Assembly (NCBI GenBank): GCA_963676835.2
Contig: CAXXFF010000003.1
Coordinates: forward strand, 544,001-608,000
DNA: 64,000 nt
Origin: Marispirochaeta sp.
GTDB lineage: Bacteria > Spirochaetota > Spirochaetia > JC444 > Marispirochaetaceae
Direction of reading: 5' to 3'
The position numbers and the translations under genes are program-made. Under the pieces are notes generated by a model. The model saw only the letters and a program-made list of their open reading frames with translations, was not told the origin of the DNA and searched no databases. Below, piece by piece: positions 19,802 to 49,843 of this stretch; positions within the stretch are counted from its first letter, which is position 1, and every line of letters begins with the position of its first letter.

Positions 19802-20680
19802 AAGCACCGCCAATAGAACGGCAAATACAAGGTAGGCCCCGAATCTCTGCGGGGTCAGGACCATTTTCATGCCGCTTAAATTGGTTATCTTGGTTGCTGG
19901 TCCCGACAGCATAAAAGCCACTGCGCTTCCCGGACTCATTCCCCGGAGAAGCCATTCGGCAAGCAGCGGAACCGTTCCTCCTCCGCAGACATACAGAGGA
20001 ACTCCCAGTGCTGCGGCGGAGAGAACACAAAGCCCCCGGTTGGAACTGCCGAACAATTCCGCAACCATGTTATCCGGAACGTAGCGCTGATACAAAGCTG
20101 TAAGCAGTATGCCCAGGGCAAAATAAAGCCCGGTAGCCCTTATATTGCGGCCTATATTCAAGCACAGCCTGATTAGTATATTCGTATGCCGATCACGGCT
20201 TTCTGCTTTTCTGCTGAATTTTTCAAAGGAGAAAAATGGAGTGTCCTGAAAAAGAAGACCCACCAGGGCTCCCGCCGCAAGTCCACCTGCGATACTGAAA
20301 AAAAGACGAAAAAGAAGCATCTGTGTTCCCAATACCGCACTGTAGATTAAAAGCTGCGGATTCAACAGGACTGACGACATCATAAAAGCGGCCAGCCAGT
20401 CGTGACGCATACCCTTATTTGAAAAAGAAGCGGCCACCGGAATTGTTCCGAACAGACACAATGGAGAAAGCACTCCCAGAAACGCCGCTGGAACAAGACC
20501 AAAAACACCGAGCTGTTTATTCTGAAGCCGAAGAAATACCTGCTGAATTCTGTTTTTTACGAAAACAGAGACAAGAGACCCGATCAGAATTCCCAGCCCC
20601 CAGTATAGTGCAATAAGCTGCACCTGAAGGCTGAGATAATAGACAATATAGACCAGCTCTCGACGGAAAAGATCAACCAT
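19769..20680 (-). CDS. Predicted permease (DUF318/ArsP-like)
   Basis: SPLCLFGTIP, SSVLLNP, PLYVCGGGTVP, GPAT; ATG at 20680 overlaps the DUF362 stop. Confidence 0.85.
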   Translation of the reverse strand: MVDLFRRELVYIVYYLSLQVQLIALYWGLGILIGSLVSVFVKNRIQQVFLRLQNKQLGVFGLVPAAFLGVLSPLCLFGTIPVAASFSNKGMRHDWLAAFMMSSVLLNPQLLIYSAVLGTQMLLFRLFFSIAGGLAAGALVGLLFQDTPFFSFEKFSRKAESRDRHTNILIRLCLNIGRNIRATGLYFALGILLTALYQRYVPDNMVAELFGSSNRGLCVLSAAALGVPLYVCGGGTVPLLAEWLLRGMSPGSAVAFMLSGPATKITNLSGMKMVLTPQRFGAYLVFAVLLAVLSGILVNLLVP

Positions 20681-37876: not shown

Positions 37877-40006
37877 ATGGCAGAAAAAAGCGGGCAGAAA
37901 ACAAAAGCCAGAATGGCATTCTCCACGAGGATCATTCTCTTTGTAATACTACTCCTTACACTTTCAACTTCAATCACCGGGTTGACCGGTTACTTTATCG
38001 CCAAAAATGCCCTTAACCGGAAAGGAGAACAGATACTAAGAAACTCTGTACGCCAGGCAATCGATCTTATTGAATCTTCCTTCCAATTATCCCAGGCGAA
38101 AATCATCACTGAAGCAGATGCGCAGGAGATGGTCAAAGTTGCTCTCATGGGTCCTCGCAATCCCGAGACCGGGGAACGGACACTGCTGCACAGCATTGAT
38201 CTGGGGGAAAATGGTTATTTTATCATCTACGACTCCAGAGGCACTGAAATTCTGCATCCAACCCTGGAAGGAGAGAATGTCTGGGATGTAACCAGCCTTG
38301 ATGATGAGAAGCACTACATTGTCAGGGAACAAATCAGCAGAGGCATATACGGCGGCGGGTTCATGTCATATTCCTGGTGGCTGCCGAAAACCGATACCCA
38401 GGCAGAAAAAATATCCTACAGCGAATACTTTTCCGAATGGGACTGGATAGTGGTTGCCACTGCATACGCGATCGACTTTAACAAACCTGCTCAAACGATC
38501 CTGCTTGCCGTAGGATCATCATTCATGGCTCTTGTGGTTCTTTTTTCGATTCTGATTATTCAATATGTTGAACGGGCATCTATTCCCATCCGACGGGTAG
38601 CCGTAGGTATGGAAGAGGTAATAAATAACCAGTTTAGCCTCATAGAGAATCCACATACCGGAGATGATGTTGACAAACTCATTGACGGTTACAATCACAT
38701 GATAAAATCCCTTAGACAGGCGGGTGATGACCTTGATGAGAAAAACCGCTATATAACCTACCTTGCCTACCATGATGATCTTACAGGATTGCATAACCGC
38801 TATGGCATGGAAAGCTTTGTGAGCGGCAGAATCAAGTCCGGCTGTAGTGAAGCATACCTGATACAGGCGGATATAATCGGACTGAAGGTTATTAACTCTA
38901 CCCTTGGCTTTGAACAGGGCGACCGGCTTATCAAAACTGTTGCATCCTTCCTGAAGCAGACAGAAACAGCCAGTAAACATTTTGCCAGAACCAGTAGTAA
39001 TGAATTCACCTTCTGGTATGAACCGGAACGGGGAGAAGACGTAACCTCTTTTATCAATGACCTCAGATTATCAATGAAGGAATACATTGTCCGCTACGGC
39101 TTTGGTCAGCTTATAGACATGCATGTATCCATGGTCCAGTTTCCAAGACACGGAAGCAGCTTCAATGAGCTGTACGAAAAAACCATTATGGCAATGAAGC
39201 ACGCCAAGGACAATAAAAGCCTGACGGTAAGCATTTATCACGAAGATTTACGTGCAAGTCTTGAAAATGAAGTATTTATGCGCACCCATCTTCAGTCGGC
39301 TCTGCAAAACGGCGAGATCACCGCCTGGTACCAGAAACAGGTGGATTATACCAGCGGAGAGGTCGTTGGAATTGAAGCGCTGGCCCGGTGGCGCTCAAAA
39401 GAGCTGGGAAATGTTCCCCCCTCGGTTTTTATACCTGCCATTAATCAGCTGAACCTTGTAAACGAGTTTACTGAGTATATGATCAATCATATTCTCGAAA
39501 ACTACCCCAGACTTATCGAAAAGTATAATAAAGATATTACCGTTTCCATAAATATTTCCCCGGCCTATTTTATGGATCAGAACTTCCTTGCCAATCTGCA
39601 GAGCACCTTTACCAAAAACCCGATACCACCGGAAAAACTGACCCTCGAAATTACGGAAGATATTTTTATTACCAATTTTGAAAGTATCAGCGAAACAATA
39701 GAGCAGCTGCATAAAATCGGGGCACGCATTTCTATCGATGATTTCGGCACCGGTTATTCGTCATTGAATTACCTGACAAGGATGAACTTTGACGAAATGA
39801 AGATAGACAAGAGCTTTATTTCGAGAATTCTTGATGATGAAAAATCATTTCAGCTGTTTGAAATCCTCTGCAATATTGCGGAAATATACGGCTACGATAT
39901 GGTGGCGGAAGGGGTAGAAACAGAGGAACAGCTGGAAAAAATAAAGGAAACCCCGCTGAAAATTATCCAGGGATACCTCTTTTCAAAGCCGGAACCCCTG
40001 GAATAA
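37877..40006 (+). CDS. Cache-HAMP-degenerate GGDEF-EAL c-di-GMP phosphodiesterase
   Basis: Cache motifs (GYF..YD, HP, WDWIV); GGDEF replaced by SSNEF; IEALARW, LEITE, DDFGTGYSS, AEGVET. Confidence 0.9.
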   Translation: MAEKSGQKTKARMAFSTRIILFVILLLTLSTSITGLTGYFIAKNALNRKGEQILRNSVRQAIDLIESSFQLSQAKIITEADAQEMVKVALMGPRNPETGERTLLHSIDLGENGYFIIYDSRGTEILHPTLEGENVWDVTSLDDEKHYIVREQISRGIYGGGFMSYSWWLPKTDTQAEKISYSEYFSEWDWIVVATAYAIDFNKPAQTILLAVGSSFMALVVLFSILIIQYVERASIPIRRVAVGMEEVINNQFSLIENPHTGDDVDKLIDGYNHMIKSLRQAGDDLDEKNRYITYLAYHDDLTGLHNRYGMESFVSGRIKSGCSEAYLIQADIIGLKVINSTLGFEQGDRLIKTVASFLKQTETASKHFARTSSNEFTFWYEPERGEDVTSFINDLRLSMKEYIVRYGFGQLIDMHVSMVQFPRHGSSFNELYEKTIMAMKHAKDNKSLTVSIYHEDLRASLENEVFMRTHLQSALQNGEITAWYQKQVDYTSGEVVGIEALARWRSKELGNVPPSVFIPAINQLNLVNEFTEYMINHILENYPRLIEKYNKDITVSINISPAYFMDQNFLANLQSTFTKNPIPPEKLTLEITEDIFITNFESISETIEQLHKIGARISIDDFGTGYSSLNYLTRMNFDEMKIDKSFISRILDDEKSFQLFEILCNIAEIYGYDMVAEGVETEEQLEKIKETPLKIIQGYLFSKPEPLE

Positions 40007-40051
40007 TCATCGTATACCTGAAATACCTGCCTGCTTACAACGGATAGTATC

Positions 40052-40618
40052 TCAAGCCTTAACAGTCTCACCAGTCAGGGCAAGAAGGGGCGCATGGTTA
40101 TGCACCCGGTCTTTAACAACCAGGGTGGTAACATCGCTCTCTATCTGCCGGTTAAAGAGAATATCGTGACCCAGACACAAACCCATGGTTACAGTGAGCT
40201 CAACACCGGCAGCATTGAGCTGGGCCGCCTGCCCAAGGGGATTGCAGGAAACCCCGGGGAGATCACTCTTGGCGTTTACTGCATTCTGCGCAAGGGCTCC
40301 CACGGTACAGGAAACAGCTTCAATTTTAGCCCCGGACTCTTTCAGTCTCGCAACAGCAAGGGCAGCCTCTTTTTCCATACCATAGCAGTAGGCAAGGCCT
40401 ACCTTTTTAAGTTTCTGGTCATGAATGTATTCAACCAGTTCCTGAACCCGGTCAAGGGTACCCGCGCGGCCGCCGTCAACAAGACGGGCGGCGCTTTCCA
40501 CCAGGGGAGCAGTGCTCTCATGCCGGTAGTCCGTTACCAGCCCTTCTCTGTCGAATTTTTCGGCGCCGCAGCTTTCTGTGCTGCGGCACGATTTGGCGCC
40601 GCAAAGGGTACAGTTCAT
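40052..40618 (-). CDS. DUF1847 metal-binding protein
   Basis: N-terminal CxxC...C...C; GLAYC.G, SCTVG, CNP.GQA, GLCLGHD.LF, LVVKDRV..H.PL. Confidence 0.88.
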   Translation of the reverse strand: MNCTLCGAKSCRSTESCGAEKFDREGLVTDYRHESTAPLVESAARLVDGGRAGTLDRVQELVEYIHDQKLKKVGLAYCYGMEKEAALAVARLKESGAKIEAVSCTVGALAQNAVNAKSDLPGVSCNPLGQAAQLNAAGVELTVTMGLCLGHDILFNRQIESDVTTLVVKDRVHNHAPLLALTGETVKA

Positions 40619-40630
40619 CCGTCTTCCCGC

Positions 40631-41914
40631 CTATTCCATCTCTTTGGTTACGGCGATTGCAGCAATAGTTCCGTCTGCAACGGCCGTTGTAATCTGGCGG
40701 TAGCGTTTTGACTTGACATCTCCGGCGGCAAATACACCGGGAATGTTGGTCCGCATCTCTTCGTCGGTTTCCAGATATCCCCACTGATCCAGGGTGAGTT
40801 TGTCGTTGAACATCTCGATGTTGGGAATAAATCCTACGAAAACAAAGATACCGTTGGACCGCACCTCTTTGGTTTCTTTTGTTTTCAGGTCTTCAACTAC
40901 AACGCCCATATCCATGGTTCCGTATTTCTTGAACTCCCGGGGCTCATGCTCAAAGAGAATCTCGATTTTAGGGTCGGCAAAGGCCTTATCCTGAGCCTCT
41001 TTGTTTGCCTGAAGATGGTCGAACTGATGCACGATGGTGATCTTTTTGGCAAACTTGCTGATAAAAAGACTCTCTTCAATGGCACTGTTTCCGCCGCCGA
41101 TAACAACAACTTCCTTATCTTCGAAGTATTTTGCGTCACAGGTTGCACAGTAGGAGATACCGTTTCCGGCATACTCTTTTTCTCCGGAGACTCCAAGAGG
41201 ACGGGGCCGGCTGCCGGTGGCAATAACAATTTTATGGGCCTTGATGGTCTCATAGCCGTCTATCTTTACACACTTGCAGTCAAGGTCAACATAATCGATC
41301 TCTACAGCAGAGCGGAAGTCAACGCCGTTCTCCTTGGCCTGCTCGCTCATGTAGTGAGAAAGCATAAATCCCTGCTGTGGCTGAATGAAACCGGGATAGT
41401 TGGAGACCTGATGGGTGGTGGATACGTATCCTCCGGGCAGAGCAACGTCGACCAGGATGGTCTTCAGATGCGCCTGAGCCAGATAGACTCCTGCAGTTAA
41501 TCCTGCAGGACCGCCGCCGAGAACAAGAACGTCCGCTTCTGTTGTCTTCTCTTCAATTTTACCGTGAATCTCTGCAACCTTTGCTTCGGGAAGCATGGCA
41601 TCCAGATTCTTTACAATCTCCGAGCGTTTAATGCCTCCGGAGAGCTTATCGCCAACCATCTCACCGTCTTTATAAAAAAGCACTGTGGGAGACCCGGTTA
41701 CATCAAGCTCCTGAGCGAGCTCACGGTTTTCCTGTCTGAATATTTTGAAGAAGGCGATATCGTCACCATACAATTCACTTAATGGCTCGTATTTTGCAGC
41801 CAGGGCCTCACAGGGAGGACACTCTGTAGAATAGAAATCCAGAACTGCCAGCGGTTTGCTGAGCACTTCGCTTTTAAACTGATCCTGATTAATTTCCTTG
41901 ATTTTTCCTGCCAT
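40631..41914 (-). CDS. Thioredoxin-thioredoxin reductase fusion protein
   Basis: N-terminal Trx fold with CPPC; GGGPAG, IATG, SYCATCD, GGGNSA, FAAGD, QITTAV.DG. Confidence 0.92.
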   Translation of the reverse strand: MAGKIKEINQDQFKSEVLSKPLAVLDFYSTECPPCEALAAKYEPLSELYGDDIAFFKIFRQENRELAQELDVTGSPTVLFYKDGEMVGDKLSGGIKRSEIVKNLDAMLPEAKVAEIHGKIEEKTTEADVLVLGGGPAGLTAGVYLAQAHLKTILVDVALPGGYVSTTHQVSNYPGFIQPQQGFMLSHYMSEQAKENGVDFRSAVEIDYVDLDCKCVKIDGYETIKAHKIVIATGSRPRPLGVSGEKEYAGNGISYCATCDAKYFEDKEVVVIGGGNSAIEESLFISKFAKKITIVHQFDHLQANKEAQDKAFADPKIEILFEHEPREFKKYGTMDMGVVVEDLKTKETKEVRSNGIFVFVGFIPNIEMFNDKLTLDQWGYLETDEEMRTNIPGVFAAGDVKSKRYRQITTAVADGTIAAIAVTKEME

Positions 41915-41916
41915 CT

Positions 41917-43269
41917 TTACTCTCCTTGGCTTTTAGCAGCCTGGTTAACCTGCTGAAAATGTTCGAAATGATGAAAATAGAGGGGAATCCCCATACCTAA
42001 TAACTTATCCACCGGTCTGCAGTCCGGATGAAGGACTGTGCCGCTGGCGTTCTTTGCAACCGATGCACATCCGCCGCCGCATGCAAGCTGAAGAGAACAG
42101 TCGGCACACTGGGGAATGGAAGTTACATCCCGCTCTTCCCACTCCTCTACGGCGTCTTCGTTCATGCTCATTTCGGGATAGAATGTTCCCAGTACTTCCC
42201 CGTCTTTTCCTACGGTGGCAGTACAGGAATATACCTTGCCCGTATAATCCAGGGCCCATTCAGTTTTTGTTCCCGGGCATGAATCAAACAGGGGTTCCGG
42301 CATTTCTCCGTGTTCAAAGAGAAACTTTGAAATTGAGTAGGCCGGACGGTGAAACTCAAGAAAATCCGGGTTTTCCAGGATCATCTCATACAGATCCTCA
42401 TACATGCTTATCCTCGAATAGAGCTTTTTCTGATCTGCCTGGCAGCTGTGCAGTTCGTAGTTTCTGCCCAGCTGGGTTTTAAACAGCCGGTTGCCCGTCC
42501 AGCCCCGGTCTATGGCAAAGCGGGCCAGCTCGGGAAGGCCTGAAAGATTCTCTTTATCAATAACCGCTCTAAGGTTTATCCCGATACCCGCCGCAAGGGC
42601 TGCATCTATGCCCTTTACAATCTGATCAAAGGTTCTGCCGCCGCCATGGAGAAACCTGCGCCGATTGTGCAGATCCCCTACTCCGTCCAGGGTCACCTGA
42701 ACTTCACGGATGCGGTAACTTTTCAGCAGCGGAACATAGTTTTCCAGTTCGTAGCCGTTGGTTACAATTGCCGTATCAAGACCGCGATCTTTCGCGCCTT
42801 CAAGGAGCTCTTCAATCATGGTCCGTGAACGCTGATTCGGCATAAGAGGCTCGCCGCCGAAGATGGTTATATACTTCTGTTTTCCCGCAAGACGGCTGTC
42901 TATCCAGCTGAAAAAAGCGGAAACAATCTCTGCAGGCTTTTCGTCCTTTGAGTGTTCGTAACTTTCCTGATAACAGTAGGAACAGGCGAAGTTACAGGCA
43001 TAACTGGGAACAAAGAAAACCTGAACTTCGTCATTATCGCGGTTTTCAATAAACTCAAGATAGGACTCCCGGTATCTGCGGGTCTCTTCAGCCTCATCGA
43101 TGATATAGCCTTTTTCGATAAACTCTGCCCTGTCTTCAAGAGTACCGTTCATATACTCCTCTGCCATTTCTGCGGGAAGAATATCCGCCTGTTGTGAGAG
43201 AGGGTTGACCAGAATGTATTCGTCCTGGCCTTTCAGTTTACTTAGAATATTGTATTTAGAATTCCTCAT
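41917..43269 (-). CDS. Radical SAM/SPASM domain peptide maturase
   Basis: CNFACSYC (CxxxCxxC), FGGEPL, TNG, QVTLDG; SPASM C-x17-C...CxxC-x5-C-x3-C...C; about 80-aa N-terminal extension. Confidence 0.93.
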   Translation of the reverse strand: MRNSKYNILSKLKGQDEYILVNPLSQQADILPAEMAEEYMNGTLEDRAEFIEKGYIIDEAEETRRYRESYLEFIENRDNDEVQVFFVPSYACNFACSYCYQESYEHSKDEKPAEIVSAFFSWIDSRLAGKQKYITIFGGEPLMPNQRSRTMIEELLEGAKDRGLDTAIVTNGYELENYVPLLKSYRIREVQVTLDGVGDLHNRRRFLHGGGRTFDQIVKGIDAALAAGIGINLRAVIDKENLSGLPELARFAIDRGWTGNRLFKTQLGRNYELHSCQADQKKLYSRISMYEDLYEMILENPDFLEFHRPAYSISKFLFEHGEMPEPLFDSCPGTKTEWALDYTGKVYSCTATVGKDGEVLGTFYPEMSMNEDAVEEWEERDVTSIPQCADCSLQLACGGGCASVAKNASGTVLHPDCRPVDKLLGMGIPLYFHHFEHFQQVNQAAKSQGE

Positions 43270-43293
43270 AGTTCCTGTCCGTGTAAAATAAAT

Positions 43294-43321
43294 CCCGAAG
43301 AGACCCGAAGGTCTCTTCGGG
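43294..43321 (-). terminator. Perfect 12-bp stem with UUCG tetraloop between peptide gene and rSAM gene
   Basis: Minus strand CCCGAAGAGACC-TTCG-GGTCTCTTCGGG followed by ATTTATTTT. Confidence 0.85.
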
Positions 43322-43332
43322 AACGCTGGCTC

Positions 43333-43440
43333 CTAATCGTGGCAGCCGGCGACAACTTTGGAGGTCTTGGCGCAGCACTGTGCTACAGCCTGACCGGAAG
43401 AAGGATTCTTCTTCACAAGGGAAAGCATCTTTTTCTTCAT
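43333..43440 (-). CDS. Putative RiPP precursor peptide, 35 aa: MKKKMLSLVKKNPSSGQAVAQCCAKTSKVVAGCHD
   Basis: Manual translation; AAGGAG RBS 6 nt upstream of ATG; TAG stop; lies directly upstream of the rSAM/SPASM gene; Lys-rich N-terminus and Cys-rich C-terminus; below the ORF-track length cutoff. Confidence 0.85.
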   Translation of the reverse strand: MKKKMLSLVKKNPSSGQAVAQCCAKTSKVVAGCHD

Positions 43441-43464
43441 GCCCTGCTCCTTAAATTTATCGTA

Positions 43465-44160
43465 TCAGCCGTTCTTTCCAGGCTTGTAAGCCTGAATCGT
43501 CCAGCTGGATACTTCTATTTCGCCCTTGGGGTAAGGTTCACTTTCCTCAAGGATAGTTACATCGGTAAAACCTGCATTGGTCAAATGCTGAGTGTATTCA
43601 TCCCGGGTAACAGAACCTGCCCAGCATTCTGCCACTGCCTCCGGATCATTTTTGTATTTTTCAGGCACCGGAGCGGTTGAATAGATATCGCTCACCACAA
43701 AACGGCCGCCGGGTTTGAGAATCCGGGCAATCTCAAGCCATACCTGCTGCTTGTCATCAGCATGGTTGATGGTACAGTTGCTGATAACCAGATCAACTGA
43801 TTCATTTTCGAGCTTGATTTCTTCCAGGTTGGTTTTAATTACCCGGCCGTTTGAAACACCGAACTTCTCAAGATTCTTTGTGGCCTTTTTTATCATACCA
43901 TCGGAAATATCCACACCGATAACTTCACCGGCCGGCCCGACGGACTCCGCAAGTCTTATAAGATCATGACCCCTGCCGGAGCCGAGGTCTACACAAACCT
44001 CTCCGGCTGCAGGATCTGCATGGTTTATAGCACCGCCGCAGGAAAGACAGCAGGAGGTTTCTGCAAGTTCACTGTATCGAACGTTGATGGCAGCCGTCTG
44101 ATGGACAGACCCACTGGTTCCTGATTTTTCCACTACATTCTCCCTTGTTGTAATCGCCAT
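43465..44160 (-). CDS. arsM: Arsenite S-adenosylmethionine methyltransferase-like protein
   Basis: SCCLSCGG, VDLGSGRG.D, VGP.G.VIGVD, VISNCTIN, LKPGGRFVVSDI, ECWAG, L..AGF; Cys positions match those conserved in ArsM. Confidence 0.8.
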   Translation of the reverse strand: MAITTRENVVEKSGTSGSVHQTAAINVRYSELAETSCCLSCGGAINHADPAAGEVCVDLGSGRGHDLIRLAESVGPAGEVIGVDISDGMIKKATKNLEKFGVSNGRVIKTNLEEIKLENESVDLVISNCTINHADDKQQVWLEIARILKPGGRFVVSDIYSTAPVPEKYKNDPEAVAECWAGSVTRDEYTQHLTNAGFTDVTILEESEPYPKGEIEVSSWTIQAYKPGKNG

Positions 44161-44196
44161 ATTCCTTCTTCCTATTAGTTTAGTACTCTCTTACGC

Positions 44197-44646
44197 CTAT
44201 ACAAGACGCATAAGCAGATTAATTCCTTTTCTGACCATCTCAAGCTGATCTCCCTCAAGCTGATCGGTAAGCAGTTTTTCGCAGGCTTCTTTCTCACTCT
44301 CAAGTGCCGCCAGACACTCTTCCCCTTCGCTGCTTAAACGAAGCAGCTGGTTACGCCGGTCATGACTGTCTGACTGAACGGTGATAAAACCGCGGTTAAT
44401 CAGCTGATTGACCAGACGGCTGCCACGGGAAGGTGATACACCAATACCGGCGGCAAGGTCTTTTGAGTTCATTTCACTGGAGGAGAGAAAATAGAGACAG
44501 GAAACATCCCGGTTGGAAAGATTAAACCGGCTGCCGATACGTTCATCCAGATTGCATTTCTTTTTAAATGCGATGATCTGGTCGATTAGCCGGTCGTCCA
44601 TGGGATATTCAGTCTGGTTGCTTGCCGCAATAATTGCCATATGCAA
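44197..44646 (-). CDS. MarR family regulator with four cysteines
   Basis: SKDLA..IGVSPSRGSRLVNQL..RGFI...DRR...L.LS.EG; exact start uncertain (44646, 44640 or 44601). Confidence 0.88.
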   Translation of the reverse strand: MHMAIIAASNQTEYPMDDRLIDQIIAFKKKCNLDERIGSRFNLSNRDVSCLYFLSSSEMNSKDLAAGIGVSPSRGSRLVNQLINRGFITVQSDSHDRRNQLLRLSSEGEECLAALESEKEACEKLLTDQLEGDQLEMVRKGINLLMRLV

Positions 44647-44659
44647 CTATTTACTACTT

Positions 44660-44697
44660 TTATATATTTTTGTCAATATATATTTATCAATATATAA
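44660..44697. promoter_or_regulatory. Overlapping TATATATT...AATATATA inverted repeats covering the minus-strand -35 TTGACA upstream of marR
   Basis: Minus strand ttatatattgataaatatatattgacaaaaatatataa; AT-rich, so partly low complexity. Confidence 0.5.
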
Positions 44698-44796
44698 TAA
44701 TTTATTTAATCAGTCGGTAAAAATCCTGTAACGTTTTGCAGTAACACATTTATTTTGTTATTTTATAATAGTGTTAATGACCACAGGAGAACCGTT

Positions 44797-45027
44797 ATGA
44801 CAAAAAATATCACCCTGAAAATTGATGAAGATTTGTTGAAACTCTGCCGCTTTGAAGCCGTTGAAAACGATAAATCTCTTTCTCAATGGGTGGCAGATGT
44901 TCTCCTTGAGCATGTAAAGGGAATAGATGAGTATCTGTACGCCCGGGAACGGGCGAGAAAACGGCTGAATGAGGGGTTTTCCCTGGGAAACAACCCGCTG
45001 CTTCGGGATGCAGCCCATGAAGGTTAA
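44797..45027 (+). CDS. Ribbon-helix-helix antitoxin (CopG/DUF6364-like)
   Basis: MTKNITLKIDEDLL...A....SLSQ.V; AGGAG RBS; overlaps the PIN gene. Confidence 0.8.
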   Translation: MTKNITLKIDEDLLKLCRFEAVENDKSLSQWVADVLLEHVKGIDEYLYARERARKRLNEGFSLGNNPLLRDAAHEG

Positions 45028-45436
45028 ACAGATTTTTCTGGACACGAATATACTGCTCTATGCTTATGACAATGATGCCGGAGAAAAACACCGAATTGCT
45101 GCAAAGCTGATTCTATCGGCCTGGGACGGGGAATTTCTTCCGGTAATAAGTATTCAGGTATTACAGGAGTTTCTGGTAAATCTGTTGAAAAAGGGCGTTT
45201 CGGAAAATGATGCTTTCGCAGTAGTCGCTGATTATTATACCTGGAGAATAGTTGAAAATAATCTGAATCTTTTCCGCAAAGGTCTTGCTGTGATGAATGA
45301 GTATGGCTTATCCCTCTGGGACTCCATGATTGTTGCAGCAGCCCGGCAGGCCGGCACGGAAGAACTCTGGACAGAAGATTTAAACACAGGGCAGCTTTAC
45401 GGCTCAGTTAAAGCAGTAAATCCGCTGAAGGAATAA
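45017..45436 (+). CDS. vapC: PIN domain toxin (VapC-like)
   Basis: FLDTNILLYAYD, QVLQEF, WDSMI.AAA, WTEDL, NP; ATG at 45017. Confidence 0.88.
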   Translation: MKVKQIFLDTNILLYAYDNDAGEKHRIAAKLILSAWDGEFLPVISIQVLQEFLVNLLKKGVSENDAFAVVADYYTWRIVENNLNLFRKGLAVMNEYGLSLWDSMIVAAARQAGTEELWTEDLNTGQLYGSVKAVNPLKE

Positions 45437-45460: not shown

Positions 45461-46213
45461 TCAGGCTTCTATAACCTCAATACCATGTCTTACAAGCATG
45501 CTTCGCTCCTGCTCCGGAAGACCTCCATCTGTTACAAGACGATGCACTGAGGAAAGAGGCGCTACCGGCGCCACACCGGTTTTTCCGAACTTACTCCGGT
45601 CTGCCAGAACAGTAACTTCCCCGGCGAGTTCTATAATACTTTTACGGATTTCTATCAGGTTCAGATTGAAGCCGGTTACCCCTTTATCTTCAGAAATTCC
45701 CGCGGCACCGAGAAAATACCGGTGAATATGAAAACGGCGGAGATTCTCAATTGCCAGAGCCCCGGTAACCGCCTTGTCCATAGCATTGACTGTTCCGCCG
45801 ATCATAATTACCTCAATCTGAGGTTTTTCACACAGGGCTGCTGCAACTTCGAGAGAGGTAGTAACGCAGGTAAAGCGGCGAAGAGGATCGATTGCTTTTA
45901 CCATCTCCATTACAGTGGTACCGCAGTCGAGAACAACTGTCTCGTTATCTTGAATCAGCCCGGCCGCTCTGACTCCCACTGCAGTTTTTGTACCTCCGGA
46001 ACCCGCCCTGACAAGATTCTGCCCCTGATTAATTGCAGCTACTCCTCCACGGGCGGAACGCAAAAGCCCGAGCTGTTCAAGCTCCCGTATATCCCTGCGT
46101 ATGGTAGATTCAGAGCCGTCTATGCTTGAAACCAGATCGCGGAGTTTGACAATACCACGGCTGTTTACAAATTCAAGAATTTCCTGTTGCCGTTCCATCG
46201 GTAGTTTAGACAT
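45461..46213 (-). CDS. DeoR/GlpR family regulator
   Basis: ERQQEIL, SESTIRRD, RGG, LDCGTT, D.SKFG. Confidence 0.93.
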   Translation of the reverse strand: MSKLPMERQQEILEFVNSRGIVKLRDLVSSIDGSESTIRRDIRELEQLGLLRSARGGVAAINQGQNLVRAGSGGTKTAVGVRAAGLIQDNETVVLDCGTTVMEMVKAIDPLRRFTCVTTSLEVAAALCEKPQIEVIMIGGTVNAMDKAVTGALAIENLRRFHIHRYFLGAAGISEDKGVTGFNLNLIEIRKSIIELAGEVTVLADRSKFGKTGVAPVAPLSSVHRLVTDGGLPEQERSMLVRHGIEVIEA

Positions 46214-46457
46214 GCTTTCTCCCTCTACTCCTATGCATCACATGAAGCAATATGACATATTTTGACTTTTTTTGCAAGTTTTTATTAACTTTTTATTCAT
46301 TATTCGCCATTCTGCTTTGACATTTGTCATTACATGTCATAATATTGAATCATCAATAATAATTTAAACGAATCCCTGTACATAAAGGGTATTCAGGAAT
46401 TCTGCAGCAACGCGCGCAGAGAACAACGATAATCGGTATACAGTGGAGGTATCGACC

Positions 46458-47288
46458 ATGCATGTAGGAAAAGAAATACGTTTAGCCCGTCTTCTCAATT
46501 CAAAATCAGGTAAGCTTCTGGGGATTACCATGGACCATCCCATTACCCGCGGAGTACTTCCCGGCCTGGTAAACATCCGGGAAACCATGAAGAAGGTTGT
46601 CGCAGGACGTCCCGATTCAATAACAATTCACAAAGGAATCGCCGAGCATGTTTTCCCACCCTATGCGGGAAAGGTTGCCATGATTTTCAAATCCACCGCC
46701 TATAACATTCCCTACCACCCTGAATTTGACACCCCTGTAGCGGATGTGGAAGAAGCAGTTCGGATGGGAGCGGATGCAATCTCTGTAGGATGCATTGTGG
46801 GCGGTCCGGAACAGAAGGAACAGATTACCCAGCTTGGACGGATCAGCAAGGAAGCACTTGGTGCAGGTATGCCTCTGGTTGCCCATATCTATCCCAAGGG
46901 CAGCATGATCGAGGATCCAAACTCTGCTGAAAACCTTGCATATGCGGTTCGTGTTGGCGCTGAACTTGGCGTTGATCTTATCAAAACCCTCTGGAGCGGA
47001 TCTGCGGAAAGCTTTCAGAAAGTAGTTGAAGCATGCCCCACTAGGGTTGCCCTGGCAGGAGGAGCCGCCGGAAACAGCCTTGAGGACTACTTTAAAATGA
47101 CAAGGGATGCTCTGGATATCGGCCTGGCCGGTGTTACCTACGGACGTTTTGTCTGGGAAGACCCCAAGCCTGCAGCGGTTATCCGCGCCCTGGCTGCTAT
47201 TATGCATGACGGAGCCAGCGTAGAGAAAGGTGTTGAAATCTATAATTCCACCCCAGCAGACTACGACGCAGACAACGAGGAGGCATAA
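46458..47288 (+). CDS. Class I aldolase (DhnA/LsrF-like)
   Basis: MDH, VEEAVRMGADA, YPKG, AELGVDLIKT (Schiff-base Lys), AGG, GR.VW. Confidence 0.88.
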   Translation: MHVGKEIRLARLLNSKSGKLLGITMDHPITRGVLPGLVNIRETMKKVVAGRPDSITIHKGIAEHVFPPYAGKVAMIFKSTAYNIPYHPEFDTPVADVEEAVRMGADAISVGCIVGGPEQKEQITQLGRISKEALGAGMPLVAHIYPKGSMIEDPNSAENLAYAVRVGAELGVDLIKTLWSGSAESFQKVVEACPTRVALAGGAAGNSLEDYFKMTRDALDIGLAGVTYGRFVWEDPKPAAVIRALAAIMHDGASVEKGVEIYNSTPADYDADNEEA

Positions 47289-47291
47289 GCC

Positions 47292-48332
47292 ATGCTTGCC
47301 GCTCAGCTGAGAGCACCAAACGATATGGCAGTCACCGAAGTCCCCATGCCCAAAGCTGGGGACGGTGAGTTTGTCATGAAAGTAAAGGCCGCCAGTATCT
47401 GCGGAACCGATGTCCGCATCTACCGGGGAAAAAAGACAAAAGGTATTCGCTACCCTTCTACCATCGGGCATGAGTTTGCCGGAGAAATTGTAGAAGTAGG
47501 CAGCGGAGTGACCGGCTTTGCAGTGGGAGACAGGGTCAGTGTTGATCCGGTTATTCCCTGCCACGGCTGCGCCTACTGCCTTAAGGGCATGGAAAATGTA
47601 TGTGCCAACCGCACTGCCATAGGATATGAGTATGAGGGAGCATTTGCCGAATATATTCTTATTCCTAAACCGGCAGTTGAAGGCGGCCATGTCTATAAAA
47701 TACCCGAAGGAGTTTCCTGGGGAGCCGCTGCTCTTGCAGAACCCCTTGCCTGCTGTATAAACGGCCAGGAAAAGGTTAATATTCAGATGGGAGACACCGT
47801 TGTAGTTATCGGCACCGGCCCCATCGGGCTCATGCATGTAAAGCTTGCCAAAGCAAAGGGTGCAGGGAAGGTAATCGTCAGTGAACTGCACGATCACCGG
47901 CGACAGACTGCCCTGGACTGCGGTGCAGATATAGCCGTGAACCCAGAAAAAGAAGAGCTTGCGGCTATAGTAAAGAATGCAACCGCAGGAATTGGAGCCG
48001 ATGTGGTAATAATGGCAATTGGAATCCCTGCTCTCGTCAAACCTGCCATAGACCTGGCCCGTAAGGGCGGAAGGGTCAGTCTCTTTGCAGGATTTACCGC
48101 GGGAGTATCAGCAGAAATAGACCCTAATATTATCCATTACAATGAACTTATTGTAACCGGAGCCAGTGCGCTTAAACGATCGGACTATGCGACTGCAGTA
48201 CAGATGGTTGCAAAAAAAGAGTTCGGCGCAGATCAGCTGATCTCCCATGAATTTCCTTTACAGGAAATAAACAAGGCTTTTGAAATAGCCGAAGCAGGAA
48301 CTTCCAGTATCAAGGTGATGATCACACCGTGA
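47292..48332 (+). CDS. Zn-dependent (polyol) dehydrogenase
   Basis: ICGTD, GHEFAG, structural Zn motif CxxCxxC-x7-C, EPLAC, GTGPIG. Confidence 0.92.
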   Translation: MLAAQLRAPNDMAVTEVPMPKAGDGEFVMKVKAASICGTDVRIYRGKKTKGIRYPSTIGHEFAGEIVEVGSGVTGFAVGDRVSVDPVIPCHGCAYCLKGMENVCANRTAIGYEYEGAFAEYILIPKPAVEGGHVYKIPEGVSWGAAALAEPLACCINGQEKVNIQMGDTVVVIGTGPIGLMHVKLAKAKGAGKVIVSELHDHRRQTALDCGADIAVNPEKEELAAIVKNATAGIGADVVIMAIGIPALVKPAIDLARKGGRVSLFAGFTAGVSAEIDPNIIHYNELIVTGASALKRSDYATAVQMVAKKEFGADQLISHEFPLQEINKAFEIAEAGTSSIKVMITP

Positions 48333-49843
48333 CAGAGGTTCTGGTAGGAATTGATGCCGGCACATCCGGCGTAAAAGTTACCGCATTTTCACCGGACGGG
48401 ACGCTGCTTCACAGAGAGCAGCGTCCTGCCTCGGTTATTCACCCCTCACTGGACAGAGCAGAGCTGAACCTCGAACTTTACTGGGACAGCATCTGTGACG
48501 CTCTGCGTTCTACCTGCAGACAGTTCCCTGCTGTTGCCGGTGTGGGAATAGCAACAACAACTCCTACCACTATTCTTTTTGATAAAGACCTTAATCCCCT
48601 GGGTAACGGCATCCTGTATATGGACAACCGGGCTACCGGAGAACTGCAGGAAGTGGAGAAAATCTACGGCGGCAGAGGTGCATACTTTCTCCGTATGGGA
48701 AACCGTCTCAGCGTTTCCACCTGTGCTGCAGTAAATTTGCGCTGGCTTCAGCAGAATGAACCGGAACGCTGGAAGGCTGCATCCCACGCTGGTTATCTGA
48801 ACTCCTTTATAGCAGCAAAGCTTACCGGGCAGGCAGCTGTTGATTACACAACAGCATCCTACTCCGGCCTCTATCCCCTTACAGAGTCAGGTTCCGACTG
48901 GGATCAGGAGCTTCTGGAAGTATTCGGACTGGATAAAGGTAAAATGCTCCCCCTGCTATCAGCCGCTGAAAAAGTAGGAACGGTGAAGAGTGAAGCAGCC
49001 CAGTCCACCGGACTGCCTGAAGGTACGCCGGTTGCTGCAGGTTCCGCTGACACCGCCGCAGCGGCTTTCGCCCTGGGGCAGAACCAGAGCGGCGACGCCT
49101 TTGAGTCTGCCGGAACATCCGGGGTGATCAGCTTTGTTCTGGATAAACCCAACTTCAATGCCGCCTTTATGAACCGCCGGCATATAGTTGAGAACCGCTG
49201 GCTTGCCCATGGAGCCATGAGTATGTCCGGAGGATCCCTGTTCTGGGCTATCAACAATGTCTGGCCGGAGCTTAAATCTGTAGAAAACCTGGAAAAAGAG
49301 GCGGCAAAATCAACACCCGGATCGAAGGGTATTCTGTTTCTGCCCTACCTTGCGGGAGAGCGGAGTCCCATCTGGAACCCCGATGCATGCGGCAACTGGT
49401 TCGGCATGACCCGCACTACCGAACGGAGAGATATGATCCGTGCCGTTTTTGAAGCTTCAGCGTATGCAATGCTTCAGCTGGTGGAAGAGGCGGAAAAAAG
49501 CTGGAAATGGAGGCCCACCTCTTTGGTTGGTGTCGGCGGCGGAGTAAAGAGCAGCCTCTGGAACCGCATCAAGGCAGATGTGCTTAACATGGAGTACTCT
49601 GCCTGTGAAAACAGCGATGCCGCCGCCCTGGGGGCAGCCCTTATGGGAGGCACCGCGGCGGGAGTTTTTAAAGGAAGCGACGATCCTGCACTGCCGAAAC
49701 TGACGGATAATCTTGACTCAATCCTGCCCGACGAGAAAACCTTTGATACCTATATCAAAATGTATCAGATATACTCCTCACTCTATCCCAGGCTGGAATC
49801 TTCCATGAGAACCCTCGCCGGCATTCGCCGTCAGCAGGAATAA
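48329..49843 (+). CDS. FGGY family carbohydrate kinase (xylulokinase-like)
   Basis: GIDAGTSGVK, GTSG, FLPYLAGERSPIW, GGG..S, AALGAA. Confidence 0.92.
   Translation: MTEVLVGIDAGTSGVKVTAFSPDGTLLHREQRPASVIHPSLDRAELNLELYWDSICDALRSTCRQFPAVAGVGIATTTPTTILFDKDLNPLGNGILYMDNRATGELQEVEKIYGGRGAYFLRMGNRLSVSTCAAVNLRWLQQNEPERWKAASHAGYLNSFIAAKLTGQAAVDYTTASYSGLYPLTESGSDWDQELLEVFGLDKGKMLPLLSAAEKVGTVKSEAAQSTGLPEGTPVAAGSADTAAAAFALGQNQSGDAFESAGTSGVISFVLDKPNFNAAFMNRRHIVENRWLAHGAMSMSGGSLFWAINNVWPELKSVENLEKEAAKSTPGSKGILFLPYLAGERSPIWNPDACGNWFGMTRTTERRDMIRAVFEASAYAMLQLVEEAEKSWKWRPTSLVGVGGGVKSSLWNRIKADVLNMEYSACENSDAAALGAALMGGTAAGVFKGSDDPALPKLTDNLDSILPDEKTFDTYIKMYQIYSSLYPRLESSMRTLAGIRRQQE

Follow-up and report, generated by a model that had tools for sequence, protein, structure and literature searches.

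A short cysteine-bearing peptide as a putative radical SAM/SPASM substrate, encoded beside an ArsM-like methyltransferase in Marispirochaeta sp.

The stretch of Marispirochaeta sp. DNA analysed here, 64,000 nucleotides in length and referred to below as the window, carries a gene for a 35-residue peptide which is very probably the precursor acted upon by the adjacent radical SAM (rSAM)/SPASM enzyme and is likely to be modified by it. The gene belongs to a fixed and widespread cassette of four genes, specifying an ArsM-like methyltransferase, the peptide, the rSAM maturase and a thioredoxin-thioredoxin reductase (Trx-TrxR) fusion, and the copy in the window is an ordinary member of this family. 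Here the operon runs in the order MarR regulator, methyltransferase, peptide, rSAM/SPASM enzyme, Trx-TrxR fusion and DUF1847 protein (Table 1). It is possible that the matured peptide serves in the handling of arsenic.

Table 1. Position of the cassette and its accessory features in the window
Feature	Position	Strand	Basis or remarks
DUF1847 Cys-rich protein, accessory	40052..40618	minus	domain scan and locus comparison
Thioredoxin (CPPC)-thioredoxin reductase (CATC) fusion, 427 aa	40631..41914	minus	all four Cys in 79/79
Radical SAM/SPASM maturase, 450 aa	41917..43269	minus	N-terminal RRE-like domain, CxxxCxxC (92/96/99), SPASM Cys
Hairpin, 13-bp perfect stem, 4-nt loop, T-rich tail	43293..43322	minus	directly after the peptide stop
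Probable precursor peptide, 35 aa	43333..43440	minus	ORF translation; homolog alignment; codon pattern
Shine-Dalgarno AAGGAG	43447..43452	minus	6 nt ahead of the ATG at 43440
Compact ArsM-like SAM methyltransferase, 231 aa	43465..44160	minus	sequence and fold match to ArsM
MarR regulator, accessory	44197..44637	minus	two conserved Cys (28/28, 27/28)

The peptide gene and its family

The preliminary description had proposed a minus-strand ORF of 35 residues, preceded by AAGGAG at a spacing of 6 nt and ending in a CC-x9-CHD core. The ORF, its ribosome binding site and its core were all found as described, the cysteines being C22, C23 and C33, and this tiny ORF is a real gene. Its leader motif (M5-L-S-L8-V9-K-K) is followed by a variable basic linker and by the invariant core pattern A20-Q-C22-C23-A-K25-x-S27-x4-G32-C33-H34-D35. 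Residues M1-K4 constitute an extension, since M5 aligns with the usual start of the family.

When all six frames of the 4.43-Mb genome were scanned, CC-x9-CH[DN]-stop occurred once and the bare CC-x9-C 593 times, so that the full pattern is more than a chance occurrence; the scan revealed no second copy of the peptide in the Marispirochaeta sp. genome. Neither the peptide nor 30 peptides of its family gave an NCBIfam match, and Pfam provided no family, the lone match being to a chance BTK motif (E 0.05). The ESM Atlas returned clusters without names only, all below 0.9. Homologs have often been called as genes elsewhere, among the matches listed under the names hypothetical or uncharacterized protein only. 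A profile of the peptide retrieved 1,466 small-protein clusters at E ≤ 10, while the maturase family amounts to more than 3,100 clusters at E ≤ 1e-100 and has named members in Carboxylicivirga, yet neither family carries a curated name.

It had been suggested that the peptide be looked for upstream of homologous rSAM genes, and this check was passed. In 114 loci gathered by the rSAM alone, which include the window's own locus (L088) and some near-duplicates, the peptide pattern was found upstream on the same strand as the rSAM gene in 108, giving 87 distinct peptides; related loci are not independent and these counts are descriptive. L005, which has a 24% identical rSAM and no peptide, was left out of the locus counts. 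Among the six loci lacking a match, L085 has its core cut by a contig edge and the other five have at most 86 nt upstream. In the 86 distinct full cores A20, C22, C23, K25, G32, C33 and H34 are invariant, and Q21 (85), D35 (85) and S27 (84) are nearly so; the spacing between CC and C33 is fixed at nine residues across the family. A second conserved block lies at the N terminus (M-K/T-S-L-I/V-x-K-K) and the linker varies in length.

The core is under purifying selection, with a pN/pS of 0.147 (94 distinct core DNAs) and a codon-position entropy of 1.43 at the third position versus 0.29 and 0.37 at the others. Every synonymous codon is in use for its invariant residues, and each of the three stop codons occurs. 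This codon pattern rules out a spurious ORF. The peptide genes of the window and of L001 show five differences, all of them synonymous, and the nearest named relative is a Marispirochaeta MAG whose rSAM is 91% identical and whose peptide does not differ. A 113-residue ORF on the opposite strand (43339-43680) was rejected, as no support for it was seen.

Of 401 Spirochaetota genomes searched separately for each, 44 have the rSAM and 43 the peptide, the two lying on the same contigs. The genome with the rSAM only is 71% complete and its gene is partial; the peptide was never found without the rSAM. Outside the Spirochaetota the peptide is present in one Myxococcota MAG and in 2 of 301 Bacteroidota genomes, and plasmids gave no rSAM match at E 1e-40.

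A few loci depart from the usual arrangement. One genome (G136, contigs C91 and C92) has two copies of the cassette with rSAM, peptide and methyltransferase, L031 has approximately 4.6 kb between peptide and rSAM, and in another locus an IS110 transposase gene lies between methyltransferase and peptide (L142:7110-8159).

The maturase and docking of the leader

The seven SPASM cysteines of the maturase (331, 349, 388, 391, 397, 401 and 417) are invariant in all 115 maturases compared. Of the 115, 109 also have a GRNYEL motif peculiar to the family, with H274 and C276, and C276 could be an eighth ligand. No NCBIfam cut-off was reached: the top scores were those of CefB (NF038107; 141 bits against a cut-off of 600), TIGR04463 (127 against 525) and PapB (NF047865; 108 against 340), families that are alike in having Cys-rich substrates. 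The closest solved enzyme is CteB, both by profile (E 9e-19) and by fold (TM 0.63-0.65), the structure model of the maturase having a pLDDT of 88.

With the CteB/SCIFF system (thermocellin; PDB 5WGG, 5WHY; TIGR03974) the window cassette shares the layout of RRE, rSAM and SPASM domains, the seven SPASM cysteines, a small Cys-rich precursor encoded directly upstream and, in our model, a leader placed on an RRE strand. It is unlike it in that the maturase is 16-17% identical and scores 74 bits against the TIGR03974 cut-off of 425, the peptide has three cysteines instead of six, and the ArsM-like and Trx-TrxR partners are obligate. In CteB the leader adds to the RRE sheet, and a substrate cysteine is bound at the open site of Aux I (PMC6231123); seven SPASM cysteines are ascribed to CteB, QhpD and Tte1186 (PMC10352776). 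Judged by such patterns, the cassette appears to work like a CteB-type RiPP system, yet by score it is outside the SCIFF/CteB, CefB and PapB families.

The preliminary description regarded the peptide as the substrate of this enzyme and called for a structure prediction of the two together. The predicted complex scored 0.86 in three runs versus 0.02 for the best of three controls. Of solved complexes 116 of 157 attain the mark for such scores, and of mismatched pairs 2 of 215; the runs share at least 33% of their contacts and the partner pLDDT is at least 49. In the complex model confident contacts link peptide residues M5-V9 to maturase residues 26-32, 317-323 and 428-432, and the invariant L8 packs on residues 27-30, of which D29 is kept in 115 of 115 maturases. 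No confident placement was obtained for the peptide core. As modelled, M5-V9 would add a strand to the maturase RRE; the score possibly reflects likeness to the CteB-CteA pair. The two conserved blocks of the peptide and their variable linker correspond to a leader/core split, and the model places the leader on the RRE. We are dealing with a short ORF under selection and tied to an RRE-bearing rSAM/SPASM enzyme, and synteny, one-for-one co-occurrence and the RRE model together support the view that the peptide is the substrate of its neighbour.

The same description offered a small arsenic or metal chaperone as an alternative. That an unmodified chaperone or metallothionein-like peptide merely resides in the operon is very unlikely. 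The vicinal CC and C-terminal CHD, the extra CC pairs of some linkers and the high peptide abundance suggested by the hairpin would agree with it, but the peptide has a conserved leader whose invariant leucine is modelled on the RRE, it never occurs without the rSAM in the 401 genomes, and K25, S27 and G32 are invariant without being ligands, as is the nine-residue spacing. The free form of the chaperone fits badly with a conserved RRE-type leader, although we take thiol or metalloid binding to be the likeliest function of the core once it is matured.

The methyltransferase and the other genes of the operon

Of 96 loci with at least 800 nt upstream, 95 carry the methyltransferase gene there, and the 96th (L051) has it further up; Trx-TrxR is present in 85 of 87 loci. 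Counts of neighbouring genes are cluster-based, and a slight over-count is possible.

Residues C41, C129 and C179 of the methyltransferase align with C72, C174 and C224 of CmArsM; all 85 homologs and all 31 members of the tree set have them. Its top solved relatives by both sequence and fold are ArsM/AS3MT (PDB 4FR0, 4KW7, 5EVJ, 8XT7), and in the fold search every ArsM/AS3MT entry ranked above other methyltransferases. Unlike these enzymes it is short, lacking the Cys-rich N-terminal segment of about 45 residues seen in canonical ArsM; it scores 185 bits against the ArsM cut-off of 263 (NF008823); it sits in a RiPP cassette and not in an ars operon; and it falls outside the canonical ArsM clade (SH-aLRT 99 for the latter, in a quick tree with one distant outgroup row, the rooting of which was not used). 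It possesses an extra C37-C38 pair, and clade-specific changes, H133 and W180, flank its catalytic cysteines. Nine of the 43 cassette genomes have a canonical ArsM as well.

In CmArsM arsenic is bound by C174 and C224, while disulfides form at the N-terminal pair; those arising in the catalytic cycle are proposed to be reduced by thioredoxin (PMC6138428). Disulfides of this kind, with thioredoxin as the suggested reductant, would explain why the cassette has a private Trx-TrxR.

Across 94 distinct peptide-methyltransferase pairs the methyltransferase has lost its N-terminal CC in 11, of which 9 show a second CC in the peptide linker (in one of these 9 a single Cys is left in the methyltransferase); of the 83 that retain the N-terminal CC, 4 show it. 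The pattern concerns 3 of 5 lineages in a fast rSAM tree built from 66 of the 115 sequences, and three other lineages have both pairs. It is suggestive only, and may point to a peptide that works with both the methyltransferase and the rSAM. One might go further and regard the peptide as both rSAM substrate and partner of a trimmed ArsM, furnishing in trans a dithiol for the lost Cys-rich N-terminal arm and capturing methyl-As(III) covalently or within a thioether-locked cage; such a metalloid-RiPP we consider doubtful.

Loci L132-L137 form a divergent clade in which the peptides have a second CC, the methyltransferases lack the N-terminal CC and the rSAMs lack H274/C276; a DUF5714 Cys-rich gene adjoins the cassette in 4 of its 5 wide loci. 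In one spirochaete genus ArsM-like matches contain an in-frame TGA (L180 and L181, from G085, G042 and their kin), and these genes possibly specify selenocysteine forms.

The hairpin of the window has a z of -4.1, with 0 of 200 shuffles as good, and z is -2 or lower in 58 of 80 distinct loci having a gap of at least 45 nt (mononucleotide shuffles). Judging from its sequence it is presumably terminator-like or mRNA-stabilising, and it would probably raise the peptide mRNA over the enzyme mRNA; because of it, the peptide would be made in excess. Rfam had no match in 39900-44900, a promoter scan gave 8 sites versus 5.6 expected, and the repeats upstream of the MarR gene are AT-rich and unconvincing. 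The MarR gene itself is found in 30 of 86 loci with at least 1450 nt upstream.

No transporter, protease or immunity gene was found among the conserved clusters of the cassette. Together with a core that is near-invariant across lineages, a single copy and a private cytoplasmic Trx system, this renders an exported bacteriocin-like sacti- or ranthipeptide the most improbable of the readings considered, despite the CteB/PapB-like maturase and a language-model neighbour of the peptide, Bacteriocin_CLI3235, whose score of 0.80 is weak and serves as a lead only.

Arsenic and the proposed mechanism

Arsenic is, by a slight preference, our choice as ligand of the system. In L138 (G057, contig C75) the cassette is interleaved with arsP, arsR, canonical arsM, acr3 and arsC, and an ArsR-like gene is divergent from the peptide. 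The cassette is adjoined by acr3 and arsC in the near-identical L022 and L029, and by arsR and arsP in L023. Three independent loci are therefore involved, and two independent acr3 neighbours were observed versus approximately 0.13 expected, a modest excess under rough assumptions. Linkage to arsR, acr3, arsC or arsA is not the rule, ars neighbours being seen in 4 of 104 loci, and the peptide matches no ArsD family in Pfam or NCBIfam; tblastn with the L138 proteins found no ars gene in the remaining 100 loci. When 251 flanking ORFs from 19 wide loci were scanned with Pfam, L138 alone proved to have an ars operon. The regulator type of the cassette is MarR, not ArsR. While acr3 is present in 36 of 43 cassette genomes versus 156 of 358 others, it was not enriched within the two families that permit a comparison (f19, 3/4 vs 11/13; f23, 5/7 vs 3/4). 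The genome of Marispirochaeta sp. yielded no acr3 over the cut-off and no canonical ArsM; of ars-type genes it has only one that is ArsC-like and an unlinked pair, ArsR-ArsP.

Two further observations concern these genes. The cassette of L138 is rearranged, with peptide and TrxR on one strand and methyltransferase and rSAM on the other. In the window, weak tblastn matches to an ArsP-type permease lie on the minus strand at about 19838-20488 (24%) and 2197-2505 (33%), at least 20 kb from the cassette.

We propose, with about equal weight for and against, that the product is a thioether-constrained intracellular thiol peptide which the ArsM-like methyltransferase supplies with As(III) or methyl-As(III), all of the chemistry being inferred. 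The leader would dock on the maturase RRE. The SPASM domain of the maturase resembles that of CteB in its seven cysteines, and its Aux I site is probably open; the maturase would bind one core cysteine and cross-link it to a conserved core residue, for which S27 (four residues after C23) and D35 are candidates. As(III) or methyl-As(III) would then come from the methyltransferase, either as its product or by transfer, and be bound by the remaining thiols, Trx-TrxR would keep the thiols of peptide and methyltransferase reduced, and the product would stay in the cell and sequester or carry the metalloid.

A possible, though rather unlikely, alternative retains the precursor and maturase and dispenses with arsenic: an ArsM-derived enzyme would methylate or relay a peptide Cys thiol, persulfide, sulfide, Se, Sb or Te, and the product would be an intracellular thiol, redox or sulfur cofactor of anaerobes. 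It would accord with the scarcity of ars neighbours, with a MarR having two conserved cysteines, with H133 and W180 beside the catalytic cysteines, with the DsrE genes beside L132 and L145, and with recurrent neighbours elsewhere that resemble, by labels assigned by eye, sulfide:quinone oxidoreductase, TauE and a cystathionine lyase-type enzyme. Against it, the three ArsM catalytic cysteines are present in every methyltransferase homolog, ArsM is top-ranked in sequence and fold searches, and the cassette of L138 is interleaved with a full ars cluster.

Radical SAM enzymes form C-As bonds in the arsenosugar and arsinothricin pathways. By analogy the maturase might do so here, As(III) or methyl-As(III) held by CC and C33 being attacked by a peptide-centred radical to give a covalent organoarsenical peptide. 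Three invariant thiols suit trivalent arsenic, as is established chemistry, and an enzyme outside the named families, with its own GRNYEL motif, H274 and C276, would be in keeping with a reaction of this type. We nevertheless consider it improbable, since C276 is lost in the divergent clade, the ars context is weak, and thioether formers have this fold and this arrangement of seven SPASM cysteines (PMC10352776).

If arsenic is the ligand, as we slightly favour, anaerobic bacteria of sediment and sludge would have a common route to bind or methylate it outside ars operons, and surveys would have counted a different enzyme as arsM; if it is not, the cassette represents a new use of the ArsM fold. 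An arsenic-containing RiPP, bislenin, has reportedly been obtained from Roseimarinus sediminis, an anaerobic member of the Bacteroidota, and its cluster is said to comprise a Cys peptide, a radical SAM enzyme and an arsenic methyltransferase. We assume, a little more readily than not, that bislenin may belong to the same family as the window peptide. Roseimarinus has been placed in the Marinilabiliales, as presumably has Carboxylicivirga; the name Roseimarinus does not appear among the maturase matches listed. Should that report describe the same family, the cassette is already known and the window copy is another member. Our literature search, with subscription journals and supplements mostly outside its coverage, found no description of the cassette, and term look-up found no mention of it in PMC13728944, PMC12608789, PMC13188914 and PMC10352776.

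Upstream of the operon, between the MarR and DeoR genes, a 90-residue ORF overlaps a PIN-domain gene on the plus strand (44755-45436), the two being likely a toxin-antitoxin pair. It is probably a recent insertion, since in the close relative L001 nothing of the kind separates the DeoR gene from its MarR neighbour. The DeoR regulator is divergent from an operon for an aldolase, an alcohol dehydrogenase and a sugar kinase (45461-49843), an ordinary sugar-use cluster.
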